Source: Escherichia coli
GTDB lineage: Bacteria > Pseudomonadota > Gammaproteobacteria > Enterobacterales > Enterobacteriaceae
DNA: 64,000 nucleotides
Direction: 5' to 3' (one strand)
Assembly (NCBI RefSeq): GCF_050320075.1
Contig: NZ_CP190018.1
Part shown: positions 1 through 6,000 of the stretch, piece by piece
Numbering within the stretch: position 1 is the stretch's first letter
How the letters are laid out: each line of letters opens with the position of its first letter
Made by a program: the position numbers

Positions 1-3000
1 GGATACTACTTTTATAGTTTGCGCCCATATAATCAAAATATATATTTCCATTTTGTGGTAACCATCCTAATTCAGAATAAACAGTGGGTATAGAGCGAAG
101 CGAATAAAGTTCATCTAAAGCATTATTAAAAAATTTAGTGTTGCCATTAAATATAAATAGCATATTCGGATTAGATGCTAGAAAGTCTTCAGAAAGTTTC
201 CTCAAATTAAATCGCCAATCATAAAATGTATAGTTTTTGGGAGATATTGGGAATTTTCTCGAGAATTTGGTATTGTAATTTAACTCTTTTCTGGAAACGA
301 AATGATAGTTATTTATTACTGAGCTTAAAAGCCCGCCCCACATCTCTTGTGAGTGTTCATTCATCATAGACAGACCAAATACATCTAGTTTATTATCTAG
401 ATAATTAGATGCGGCATTTTTGTATGCTAACTTTATTGAGGTATCTGATGCAGTATAAAGATTGTTCTTTATATTCTTGCTTATACATAGGGAATTATTG
501 CCATTAATTATATTAATTATATTTGAGATATATTTCCTATTGTTTTCAAGTATAAATTCTTCAACGATTTTTCGGTTAGGCGGTAACTGTGATAGCTTGT
601 CAATTACAGCTGCACTAAAAGTTATTAAATCTTGATAGTGTATTAACGTTAAAAGCTCTGCTGGGTAACATTCTGAAAACCCCCCTACGTCCCAAGCCAC
701 AACATGACATGAACAACTAATCGCTTCAGCCGCTACTAAACTAAAACTTTCAAATCGACTAGGGATTATACATACTTTTGATTTTTTCAATAGTTCTAAT
801 TTTGTTTCATTATCAACCCACCCTAAAAATTCAACATTACATTTAGAATTGATAAGATTAACATAATCTTTTTCGGTAATGTTAATGCCAATAATCTTAA
901 TGTTTATATTATTTGGAAAGTGAGATATTAATTTTGAAAGATAATCGCTTCCTTTTACTAAATCAAGCCGTCCTACAAAAATAACATCAATATCTTTGCA
1001 AGTAACTTCTTGATACATAAAAGGTATAGGGTTGGGAAAAATAGCTACATTGGGTAAAGAAAAACCGTATGCTTGGTAGTTTTTTAGACTTGGTGATGAA
1101 ATATAATCAGCCTTTATTGCAGAGTCTAACTCTCGCTGATAACGATTCAAGTTAATGGTTACTTTATTTAATTCTTGTAATAACTTAGAAGGGGCATGCA
1201 GTCGTACATGTCGTTTGAATTTTGTATGTGTTTCATTATGATAAAGCCCCCACGCATCTGGAAGTTCGACAATATCATTTTCTGTGGCTATACTGTTTAT
1301 CTTATCTTCTAATTGTTTAGGGGATAATCTTTCGTCATTCCTAATAATCTGTGCATCAATGCCATTTTCTAATAGTAGATGATATGCACTCGCCACATAG
1401 TTCGAAATTCCATTGTTTTTATGTGAAAAAGGACTTACGAAGTAATATGTCATTGATGATATCCTCGATTATGTAAAATAAAGTTAAGATAATTAAATGT
1501 TAGCTAAAGGTAAGCTCTATTAAAAGAGTTAAACTATGGTATTAATGCTTTCATCAAAAATGTAATTTTCGATCGCATGCTTTACATCTTTATAAACTGT
1601 TATGTGATTGTCTCTACCGATATAGATTGCAATATCACAATATGATTTTAATAAATTCATACTATGGGAAACCATTAAGAAACTTGATTTTTCATGCTTT
1701 TTATTAAAGAGTGATAAACATTTCTCCTTAAATCTGGCATCTCCTACAGCCATAACTTCATCAACAAGATAATAATCAAAATCAAATGCCATGCTGAGTC
1801 CAAATCCTAACCGAGAACGCATGCCAGAAGAATATGTTTTTATTGGCATGTCAAAGTATTTCCCCAGTTCGGAAAATTCCTCTACAAATGAAACCTTATC
1901 TTGCAGCTCATCTTTTTTAGCATAAAGTCTTGCAACAAATTTAACATTTTCACGCCCTGTCAGACTGCCTTGAAAACCACCAGCTAAACCTACTGGCCAT
2001 GAAATGGTTTGATCAGTAAGTATTCTCCCCTTATCTGGTCGATCTATACCACCTATCATTCGAAGCAATGTTGATTTACCTGCACCATTGCGTCCAACTA
2101 AAGCAACACTTTTTCCTGTGGGTAATTCAATATTTAAATCTTTAAAAACATAATGTCTTCCTTTAGGTGTACGATATGATTTGGTGAGATTCTCAATACG
2201 TATCATGAGGTTAACATAGCCTCCTCTTTGAAACGGTAAAGGCAAAGTCCTACGAAAAACACTACTAAAGAAAAAAATGCAAGATAATTAATACTAACAC
2301 CTTCACTTATATATCCCGGTACAACAGATTGGCGACTTAACTCCACAACATGTACTAAAGGATTCCATAATAAATATCCCCAGTATATTTTAGGGATAGA
2401 ATGGAGAGGAAACATTACGCAAGATATGAAATAAAGAGGTTTAATCATTATGGGCAAAAATTTTTCCGTTTCTGGGAAAGTTTTACCTAACACCATGAAA
2501 ATTAAACCTATACCAAGAGAAAATATAATAAGTAATCCCCAAGTTGCAGCGAGTATAATGATGTTTAAAAATGAAAATTCTTCTCCAAGTAGACCTACAA
2601 TTGACATGAGGATTATGTAAACACCACTATATATTAATGCTTCAAGAAGGGTTCGTGAAATTATGGTGTCAATAGGCTTTATAGGCCTGTAATTAAATAA
2701 GCCCTGATTAGAGTTTATTGCTCCAATAGAGCGGACAGCAATATTACTAAAAAGAAAATAAGGGATAAGTCCGTTTAGAAGAAACACTGGGAACGATATA
2801 TCTGGCATAGTTCTATGCATAATATATCCAAATATACCAATCAAGATTATCAAATGTGCTGTTGGCTCAAGGAGTGCCCATAAATACCCCAGACGATATT
2901 TACCAAAACGAGTCTTAATTTCACGAAGAAATAAAGCTTTTACTGCTGCTATTTGAACTTCAAAACCACTTCTTCTAGCCATTTGAGATATAACCTTAAT

Positions 3001-6000
3001 ATATTTTGGTACGCTACCGCCCTTGGCTCTAGCTACCAGCATGCTCGGGCGTACCATATGAGACAAACCAGAATGGACAGATAAATATTTCGTCTGGTAT
3101 TAGTTTGTCTTTTCTTTACGAAAATACTTATAGATTGGACAATGAAAAATTTGGTTTAAGGCAGTCCAACCTATGTAATGTTATTGAAACATCCTGCTAA
3201 TAATCTTAAATTTAATGTTTCATTAAGTTCTATCAATTTAAACACATTGATTTGCGAATTCTATCATTTAGACTTACAGATAACTCCAGTGTTTAATATG
3301 TAAACATGCCTCATAAATTGCAAGGTAGATTGCAGGTTGCTAATCTTTTGTTACTTATATAAAATCTGTTTTGTTTATTTTATATCAAATTTTATTTATT
3401 GTTCAATGCAGAATTGATTTCTAATGTAATAGTGTCGCAGTGTAACTGTGACTCCCCATAATAAACCCCATTAACCTGTGTCTTAACCAATAAATACCCC
3501 CGAAACTTCTTAAACAGTTTCATATCTGGTTTAAAATCAGCCTGCCAGAACTGGTGCAAATGCCCTTGATACGTTAAGCCTTTGATGTCGTACAGGGCAT
3601 TGCCCATCACTTTGAGTGGTTTGTTATGAATCAGCGCAGAGATCCCCGCCGTACTGTTAATTGTTACCACCGCTTTTGCATGGCGTAATAGTTCCGGCAT
3701 CGGGAGATCGTGCACATAAATGACTCGCTCCCCTAAGCCATATTCCTTACTTAGCCGCTTAATTAATGGTCGATAGAGTCTGTGACCACGATCCATCGGA
3801 TGATGTTTGATCACCAAATAACTCTCTTTCGGCGCTTTACGCGAAAATGAGTACATGACTTCATTAATATAGTCACGCACATCGTTATAATTGCTGTGGT
3901 TACGAATTTGGCTATCGTTATATACCTGCAAAACGGCAAGATAATAACGTTGATCCAGGTCATTCATTAACCTCGGCAATACCTTACGCTGTGTTACCTT
4001 GTAAAGTTGCTTGCGCCAGTATGCACGAACCCAGCAACGAGCCTCATACCAGGGGGAAAACGATTTGTGGTGGCGGTAGCGAGGAAACTCACGACGGTAA
4101 TGCCAGCCCATCAGGTAATACCACATTGCATGGCCAATACGTTTCATCGTTGAAGGTTTTAAATTCTCAACGTGCGGCGCAGGCATATCTGGCAACTTAC
4201 GATAAAAATCCGGGTCGCGCGGTAGCGATGAATATGCGTTCACTCCGCCTTCTTCAACGGTTATAAATTGCGGGCGTAAATATCCTTCTTCAAATGCCAG
4301 AAAGCGGATCCCTTTCGACTTTGCCCAGCGTTTTGCTTCTTTGTGCAATGGGCGGCAGTCACCAAAGCAGAGGATGGTATCAAAGTCATATTGCCGATGG
4401 AGATCCCGTAACCATTCGGGGAACTCTTTCGGCGTTTGGTAGTAAGCCAGGTATTGTCGATGGCGGCAGTAAAAACGATCCCCACCGTTGAATACAACGT
4501 TCACAGCGTTACGGCCTAATGACTCTAACCATTCGGCGACGTTATTGAAAAAAGGTCCCATCGGCCCCTGCAATAGCAGATATTTTTTACCGGATAATAA
4601 AACGGTTAGTGCATTACCTTGCATAAATAATTTGCGTAATAGTCAACTATGAAATTGTTTAGCCAAATCTGACCTTGCAGAACATAATTAATTTGCGGTA
4701 ATAGCGTATGACTCGTCCCGCTTTTTTTCGGGTAATAAACATCGGCTTGCGCGGCGTCTGGATCAAATATTCCGCCGCCTCTTCAACCGTAATAGGTTGT
4801 AGCCGTATTGGGTGGATATAGGTTGGATAAACAATCAACGCCTGATAGATCAAGTCTGCTATCGTTAATCTGCGCTCGCGGCGCGGGCAGTGATGTTCAT
4901 CAACGGTTAAACCCCAACCGGCATAGAAGGGCAGGCCGTAACAATGAACTTGCTTGCCATGTAATAACGCTTCAAACCCGGACAATGATGTCATGGTGTG
5001 CACTTCATCTGCGCGCTGAATGCATTGAATAATATCTGCGTCCAGTGCCTGATAATCAGCGAGTTCAGCAATTAGTTCTGCCGGAATATCGCCCTTGCGA
5101 TTCCCCACCAGTACATCCGGGTGCGGTTTATAAACAATGTAGGCGTGCGGATTACGCTCGCGTACTGTGCGTAATAACTCAAGGTTGCTCTTAATCGAGA
5201 CAGTGCCTGTTTTAATAGAGGCATCGTCCTCTATCTGACCCGGCACCAGGATAACTTTTTTATCTTTGGCTTCGGCTGGTAGAGAGAAATCGGCTCCCAG
5301 GTTGTACTTACTCAGTTTGCTTTCAACCAGTCGCTGGCGTAATTTTTCAGCTCGCATCTGCTGCGCCAGCGTTAACTGGCTGTGATTAAGCAGGACTTCC
5401 AGGTCGCTGGGGCGCGTGGCGTCATAGTAGATCCCGCGTTTATCCAGTACCAACGATAGCGGCGGCAGCAGGTCAGAGCCAAGTCCGGATGAACGCAGAA
5501 AACCATCTTCCATTCGCCATAACGGCAGTGATTTTTGTTGCGCTTCGGCTAGCCATTGCTGTTCTCCCTTTACACCCCATACCACGCAAGCCGTCGCCGC
5601 AGTACAGCGGCGTGAATAACTCAGTCTGTTTGTTGCGGTACGCAAGAAAGGTTTCAGGATTGCCGACTTCCACAGCGTTAAGCCTGGCGACCATAAATAG
5701 CCATTACGCTGTTGCTGATGGTTGCGCTGTAATTGCAGCCATTGCAGTACGGTAAACAGATCGCTTGCGGCCCCCGTGAGCGGGTCGATATAGCGACAGT
5801 AACGCAGGTATGCAGCGGCAAAAAGTTCTTCCAGCGTGGCAGAACCGCGTCGGGCAGATAACAAAGCGGACTGCGGATGGCGATCGTCGGTTAAGCCCCA
5901 GCCTGCATACCAGGGCTGGCCGAAACATGTTACTGGTTTTCCTGCCAGCAAGGCTTCAAAGCCGTATTGGGATGTCACGACGTAAACCCGGGAAACGTGT

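Follow-up and report, generated by a model that had tools for sequence, protein, structure and literature searches.

The window analysed here, a stretch of 64,000 nucleotides (nt) from contig NZ_CP190018.1 of Escherichia coli (assembly GCF_050320075.1), carries at its left end a group 2-type kps capsule locus, all genes of which lie on the minus strand. Region 1 comprises canonical alleles of kpsF (10353-11336), kpsE (9133-10281), kpsD (7433-9109), kpsU (6683-7423) and kpsC (4659-6686), for all of which the RefSeq annotation of identical loci agrees, and ends with kpsS (3392-4624), which was recognised from the open reading frame (ORF) listing, from profile scans and from its 98% identity to KpsS of strain F11 over amino acids (aa) 1-390. 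Directly behind kpsS lies an AT-rich spacer of 409 bp (2983-3391), the leader of kpsM, kpsT and region 2, with a JUMPstart element (3010-3046; Rfam RF01707) that includes a 12-mer of the operon polarity suppressor (ops) type. It is followed by kpsM (2203-2982) and kpsT (1529-2206), divergent alleles for the permease and the ATPase of the capsule ABC exporter, and by the 5' part of a region-2 glycosyltransferase gene (1-1453), whose ATG is at 1453 and which continues past the left end of the window. Genes were called from the ORF listing together with NCBIfam and Pfam scans, and starts were set to the RefSeq annotation of identical loci. The region 1 genes of a group 2 locus are thus all present and in order, and the exporter pair is identified by Pfam ABC2_membrane and, for KpsT, ABC_tran. 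The start codon of kpsT (2206-2204) overlaps the TGA of kpsM (2205-2203) in an ATGA. GC content is 0.30-0.38 over positions 1-3500 as compared to 0.49-0.56 over 4000-11000, i.e. in region 1. An earlier reading of the sequence alone (the original prediction) had described this gene order on one strand, the ATGA coupling and the AT-richness of regions 2 and 3; ORFs, profiles, base composition and direct reading of the sequence bear out all three.

In the canonical locus of F11, yghD, kpsM, kpsT and region 2 are read in one direction and converge on kpsS to kpsF, which are read in the other, and a leader of about 1 kb with the region 3 promoter (PR3) lies between yghD and kpsM. The 741-nt PR3 leader is the known site of H-NS/SlyA action and of thermoregulation. 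The window locus resembles canonical group 2 loci (K1, K2, K5; F11) in its region 1 genes, in its flanks, in the ops 12-mer and its distance from kpsM, and it shares with F11 the ATGA-type coupling of kpsM and kpsT and the AT-rich regions 2 and 3. However, kpsM stands behind kpsS on the same strand, and the block of kpsMT and region 2 is co-directional with region 1 and devoid of the PR3 leader, whereas in F11 it is convergent, which confirms the predicted departure from the textbook layout. The locus occupies the usual group 2 site, from the pheV side to yghD/gsp, as seen in genomes with an identical locus (ST648 and WR3-3; L001 and L014). There yghD, on the opposite strand, is followed by an rve_3 remnant and then, all in the direction of region 1, by the genes for a tetratricopeptide repeat (TPR) protein and the glycosyltransferase, by kpsT and kpsM and by kpsS through kpsF.

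The layout is already known as a published minority architecture (2024-2026), which is recurrent and carried by about 2% of the complete genomes of E. coli. Nine 'G2-atypical_order' K-loci (KL110, KL112, KL117, KL134, KL137, KL142, KL144, KL167 and KL169, in the supplement), whose region 3 comes straight after region 1 so that region 2 is on the outside, were described by Gladstone et al. (Nat Microbiol 2026; PMC13171598). Less than 3.5% of bloodstream isolates carry them; the carriers belong to phylogroups A, B2, D and F, and a KL144 isolate was capsule-positive; the paper does not mention ops, RfaH or promoters, and reports no insertion sequences in these loci (PMC13171598). The window locus is assigned to this class by the described architecture, with region 1 and then region 3 and with region 2 outermost, by a shared chromosomal site, and by rarity combined with spread across phylogroups. 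It differs in that the genomes with the window locus carry the rve_3 remnant. One of the nine, KL112 of ST131 clade C, has been dissected in a preprint, where its kpsMT genes were found by RNA sequencing to be expressed at a lower level than region 1 (bioRxiv 10.64898/2025.12.15.689991). Strain 18044 (L012, NZ_AP022326), an O25:H4 strain, fits the published description of KL112. It shares with the window the co-directional order F-E-D-U-C-S-M-T-region 2, divergent kpsMT alleles and a KpsS/C-like module in a region-2 protein. The window locus is not KL112, however, as KpsM of KL112 is only 67% identical to that of the window, its 376-bp spacer is not homologous, and it has lost gsp through IS1, whereas genomes with the window locus keep gsp.

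We surveyed 5,426 complete E. coli genomes, 1,746 of which had some match to window positions 1-4700, mostly in kpsS and kpsC. The exact 4.7-kb segment was found in 22 genomes, and the junction, queried as kpsT-kpsM-spacer-kpsS at 80% coverage or more, in 36. Junctions of the KL112 type (strain 18044, 376-bp spacer) and of the EC1 type (155-bp spacer) were present in 32 and 31 genomes, so that kpsM lies co-directionally behind kpsS in 99 genomes (1.8%) belonging to three junction families. Since no homology links the spacers of the three families except in the JUMPstart, and their KpsM alleles are mutually 66-69% identical, the co-directional order must have arisen or been imported more than once. 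The 36 genomes of the window family themselves hold at least four different region 2s (those of the window, TCM3e1, XJ6.1 and 19KM1831), and region 2 of the EC1 type carries Stealth and CDP-glycerol transferase genes. The description 'non-canonical' therefore holds against the textbook but not as a novelty, because the order F-E-D-U-C-S-M-T recurs in published KL types, in 36 complete genomes and in two further families, which largely makes it ordinary.

The limits of the atypical segment could be placed closely at both ends. Beyond residue 390, KpsS of the window is unrelated to that of F11, and nucleotide homology to F11 stops at about position 3451 and resumes only about 55 nt before kpsM, at the JUMPstart. 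All KpsS alleles compared (L002, L005, L006, L012 and L013) are near-identical up to '...VYYG', at about residue 390, and then run into unrelated tails of 10-23 residues. Because all alleles diverge at this point, the right-hand junction coincides with the usual recombination point at the kpsS 3' end. The last 20 or so codons of kpsS (3392-3451) form the right-hand edge of the replaced segment, and the C-terminal tail of KpsS, judged by these alignments, is part of the variable cassette and not of region 1. At the other end, in the genomes with an identical locus, homology to the canonical locus stops 5 nt past the yghD stop codon. It follows from the two limits that the whole interval from yghD to kpsS has been replaced and that the PR3 promoter and its leader are retained at neither end; the canonical PR3 leader was also sought next to yghD in atypical loci and was absent. 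Left of the window, between yghD and the last region-2 gene, lies a 65-aa remnant of an rve_3 integrase core (16712-16909 in L001, 16711-16908 in L014), which may be a footprint of the arrival of the cassette.

The exporter genes of this segment are diverged from those of other E. coli. KpsM and KpsT are 75% and 77% identical to the F11 proteins, and KpsM scores 175 bits with the NCBIfam KpsM equivalog model, the cut-off of which is 300, reflecting allele divergence. Among the alleles examined, those of other Enterobacterales come nearer to the window KpsM than does any further one from E. coli: identity is 83% to a metagenomic contig (L007), 80% to another (L016) and 78-79% to Enterobacter asburiae, as compared to 75% to canonical E. 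coli. The nearest KpsM outside its own cluster, at 83%, is on an Enterobacter-like metagenomic contig of canonical layout, whose kpsM leader is 96.5% identical to that of E. asburiae. Five of the six non-E. coli KpsM clusters examined (P0002, P0003, P0005 and P0009 among them) were in the canonical convergent layout, and the sixth (P0019) was on a short contig with only a long non-coding leader and no kpsS. The co-directional layout was thus not found among the nearest non-E. coli KpsM relatives whose contigs carry kpsS, a comparison that did not extend to a genome-wide scan across species.

A related cassette could be followed further. In 19KM1831 (L005), the block of JUMPstart, kpsM, kpsT, a 1165-aa enzyme of the haloacid dehalogenase (HAD)-like type and a 221-aa protein has 72-74% nucleotide identity to L007, and its orientation relative to kpsS/kpsC is inverted as compared to L007. 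As the metagenomic enterobacterial contigs L007, L015 and L016 have the canonical convergent order, one cassette exists in both orientations in different taxa. Region 2 of L005 (7686-11862), encoding the HAD-like enzyme of about 1160 aa and the 221-aa protein, recurs at 72-74% nucleotide identity in L007, L015 and L016; L007 and L015 both have the gene for the latter, whereas L016 has a different gene of 323 aa instead.

The ops 12-mer GGCGGTAGCGTA lies at 3021-3010 on the minus strand, and 27 nt separate its end from the kpsM ATG. Its core, GGCGGTAG (3021-3014), is carried by the non-template strand 31 nt ahead of the ATG, and such a placement within the leader of a long operon is characteristic of RfaH/ops systems. 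The 12-mer forms the 3' end of a JUMPstart match (3046-3010) covering the full length of the model (32.8 bits, E 3.8e-4), the sole credible Rfam match in the 12.5 kb scanned. The core occurs twice in the 64-kb window as compared to 1.19 expected, a count which is not significant by itself, and the second copy (4072-4079, plus strand), antisense within kpsS, fits chance. The significance of the element comes not from the count but from its position before kpsM, from the JUMPstart match and from the alignment with the canonical kpsM leader; per locus, an 8-mer would fall by chance on the right strand of a 60-nt slot before kpsM with a probability of about 6e-4. The leader of F11 has TGGTAGCTGTTAAGCCAAGGGCGGTAGCGTA, then 28 nt and then the kpsM ATG, and a distance of 28 bp upstream of kpsM has been published (PMC8960920). 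The original prediction placed a near-consensus ops about 28 nt before kpsM; the position was correct, and 'near-consensus' undersells the match, since the 12-mer is letter-for-letter the ops of F11, the one canonical kps locus compared.

Comparison of the three junction families revealed an ops core about 23-28 nt ahead of kpsM in each of them. The window family, like F11, has GGCGGTAGCGTA, at 27 nt from the kpsM ATG. The EC1 type has GGCGGTAGCGTG at 26 nt with a JUMPstart score of 51.9 bits, while F11 has its ops at 28 nt with 58.5 bits. In the KL112-like strain 18044 the core GGCGGTAG is contained in GGCGGTAGCATA (L012 12738-12749, minus strand), 23 nt before kpsM, with no JUMPstart match at E<=10; the JUMPstart stem upstream of the core is degenerate. 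A further arrangement was found in DG342-2 (L006, NZ_CM144242), where regions 1 and 3 are adjacent and region 2 lies outside, as in the window, but kpsMT converges on kpsS and region 2 is upstream of kpsM (12134-21507: yghD, PR3 leader with ops, region 2, kpsM, kpsT). An intact canonical PR3 leader with ops, 92-93% identical to F11, precedes region 2 in this strain, and none is present directly before kpsM. The kpsMT allele of DG342-2 occurs in about 11 complete genomes and has 74% nucleotide identity to the window. Across all layouts compared, ops, as far as sequence can tell, marks the head of the AT-rich unit of kpsMT and region 2.

The remainder of the spacer was compared with other kpsM leaders and scanned for signals. 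Conservation is 99% in two further region-2 types of the window family and 86% in a third, 19KM1831, and the spacer has no similarity to the canonical PR3 leader except in the last 55 nt or so, where the JUMPstart resumes the match. The spacer of 19KM1831 is nearly invariant over the last 140 nt or so before the kpsM ATG, a stretch which includes the JUMPstart, and this is a pattern of substitution that indicates selective constraint on the kpsM-proximal part; ops is invariant among the four loci of the family though the rest of the spacer diverges by 14%. Because it is colinear with the kpsM leaders of the foreign canonical loci L015 and L016 (70% over the last 170 nt or so, weak further upstream), the spacer is best read, on these alignments, as the proximal 400 nt or so of a foreign region-3 leader. 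A terminator scan of positions 1400-3700 found no terminator-like hairpin in the spacer, and folding of the spacer RNA (z-score -2.5) gave A-U hairpins only and no intrinsic terminator; neither showed a GC-rich hairpin with a U-tract after kpsS. As no terminator hairpin follows kpsS, polymerase from the region 1 promoter (PR1) can plausibly enter the spacer. Two candidate promoter sites are conserved in the spacer, TTGATA-16-TAAATT at 3236-3209 and an extended -10-like sequence, TGATAGAAT, at 3266-3258 (minus strand), conserved in the 19KM1831 spacer. The latter is speculative and was seen by eye, the two-hexamer scan having missed it.

Taken together, these data probably describe a group 2-type kps locus of the published atypical architecture, in which a foreign co-directional cassette brought along a spacer where RNA polymerase would pause at ops and load RfaH. 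Region 1 (kpsFEDUCS) is canonical, and the segment from about codon 390 of kpsS to the stop of yghD (gspM) has been replaced by an AT-rich foreign cassette made up of a kpsM leader of about 400 bp, the JUMPstart with ops, the divergent kpsM-kpsT pair and a short region 2 encoding a three-module glycosyltransferase and a TPR protein. With the canonical PR3 promoter and 741-nt leader gone, RNA polymerase would reach the spacer from an internal promoter, by read-through from kpsS, or both, would pause at ops and load RfaH, and would thereby be able to continue across kpsMT into the AT-rich region 2, so that ops would head the unit of kpsMT and region 2 as in canonical loci. RfaH/ops dependence of distal expression has been shown for canonical K5/K1 loci (cited in PMC8960920). 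That RfaH-dependent antitermination into kpsMT and region 2 is preserved, as originally proposed, is a reasonable inference from the ops sequence and its placement, and the source of the promoter, in the spacer or through kpsS, is likewise inferred from sequence. Loss of the canonical 741-nt leader predicts altered thermoregulation.

Several observations weigh against this interpretation. The JUMPstart score of 32.8 bits is just under the Rfam gathering score of 35 and well under that of F11, one stem pair of the element is broken in the window, and position 12 of ops is A and not the G of the rfaQ-type consensus, although F11 likewise has A. In a scan of positions 1400-3700, promoter-like sites were not above the shuffled expectation. 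Inverted repeats sought at the two cassette ends gave only short AT-rich chance matches, and no ends of insertion sequences. Finally, the preprint states that PR3 and ops are lost in KL112 (bioRxiv 10.64898/2025.12.15.689991); the ops core found before kpsM in strain 18044 contradicts this for ops, and the degenerate upstream half of its JUMPstart may explain the statement.

How polymerase would arrive at ops is where the other explanations diverge. According to one, kpsMT and region 2 are an independent unit with a promoter in the 409-bp spacer or in the 3' end of kpsS, and co-directionality is without functional consequence. This is a tenable but tentative explanation. It agrees with the colinearity of the spacer with foreign kpsM leaders, with the conserved blocks between spacers that are 86% identical, and with the canonical distance from ops to kpsM. 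However, the region-3 promoter of E. coli K5 is 741 bp upstream, which is beyond the length of the spacer (PMC8960920), no promoter match was above chance, and nothing visible halts polymerase coming from kpsS.

The last two observations lend themselves instead to a single PR1-driven operon of about 17 kb, in which kpsMT and region 2, lacking a promoter, are reached by read-through only, ops loads RfaH in mid-operon, about 8 kb into the transcript, and export and synthesis come under region-1 control. All genes are co-directional, kpsS is not followed by any terminator-like hairpin, neither cassette end has PR3 or its leader, and the promoter-like matches in the spacer do not exceed chance; yet we regard such an operon as rather unlikely, as the spacer shares homology with the part of foreign kpsM leaders next to the promoter and keeps conserved blocks which include the extended -10-like TGATAGAAT, and AT-rich DNA often has promoters that consensus scans miss. 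Expression of KL112 kpsMT below that of region 1 fits either model. If the locus were a single PR1 unit, it would have lost or rewired the PR3-specific thermoregulation by H-NS/SlyA/BipA that acts through the 741-nt leader, and ops, not PR3, would be the indispensable element of region 3/2 expression, given that ops is kept in three independently derived junctions, that of KL112 among them.

It is improbable that ops and the JUMPstart are an inert relic carried along with kpsM, with RfaH playing no part. Such a relic would account for the sub-threshold JUMPstart score of the window, for a KL112 spacer without any JUMPstart match and for the reported expression of KL112 in a preprint that considers its ops lost. 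It would leave unexplained the exact 8-mer 23-28 nt before kpsM in three unrelated spacers, each at a chance of about 6e-4, the invariance of ops while its flanks diverge, and the arrangement in DG342-2, where ops went with the head of the unit and not with kpsM.

Group 3 loci (K10, K54 and K96 among them) have the order kpsDMTE, region 2, kpsCS, without kpsF and kpsU. Although the window locus shares with them export by an ABC transporter with homologues of kpsM, T, E, D, C and S and has all genes on one strand, and although the window is cut inside region 2 with the left end of the locus out of view, both a group 3 capsule locus and an assembly artefact were rejected as having practically no likelihood, because the locus has kpsF and kpsU, carries alleles of group 2 (98% identity in the case of KpsS) and follows the order F-E-D-U-C-S-M-T, and because 36 complete genomes, independent of each other and sampled in several countries and hosts, show the identical junction.

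The first region-2 gene encodes 1089 aa at full length (WR3-3, L014 18184-21453), the window holding its 5' part with GT4-type matches at aa 150-300. The complete enzyme has three modules, namely a GT4 module (aa 153-283), a weak KpsC/S-like Capsule_synth region at threshold (aa 477-636) and a GT29 sialyl-motif-like stretch (aa 913-966), and the gene for a TPR protein of 388 aa comes next. Proteins of the 'GT29 family' are present in three of the four region 2s of the window junction family. No nucleotide-sugar synthesis genes were found in region 2 of an identical-locus genome. Our guess is that the product might be a polymer containing 3-deoxy-D-manno-octulosonate (Kdo), supplied as CMP-Kdo via KpsU.

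An integrative conjugative element (ICE) of the SPI-7/PAPI-1 type lies just past kpsF, from about 12600 to beyond 36000 (plus strand). It encodes ParA, dnaB-PI, ParB, an STY4528-family protein and topoisomerase III, and its best match adds TraD and TIGR037xx ICE proteins. The best match among complete genomes is strain GF4 (95% coverage, 98.2% identity), and since the kps genes of GF4 are in the canonical order, the ICE is independent of the atypical K-locus. The interval from kpsF to the island contains a remnant of an IS110-family transposase (about 12147-12329, minus strand), whose location is the same whether a genome is canonical or atypical.

In extraintestinal E. coli, invasiveness, susceptibility to phages and the design of vaccines are all driven by the capsule type. 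What this analysis adds to the published architecture is modest and rests on sequence comparison: the ops core is kept in all three co-directional families found here, which corrects the KL112 preprint, the PR3 leader is absent, and the cassette boundaries can be placed, the replaced segment having as its exact limits the yghD stop and the recombination point known at the kpsS 3' end. Retention of ops, absence of PR3 and the boundaries make the regulation of atypical loci cleanly testable, though they hold no surprise for a specialist. The main relevance of the atypical architecture is to typing tools and to the origin of new K types, which arise by import of whole cassettes of leader, ops, kpsMT and region 2 from other Enterobacterales.

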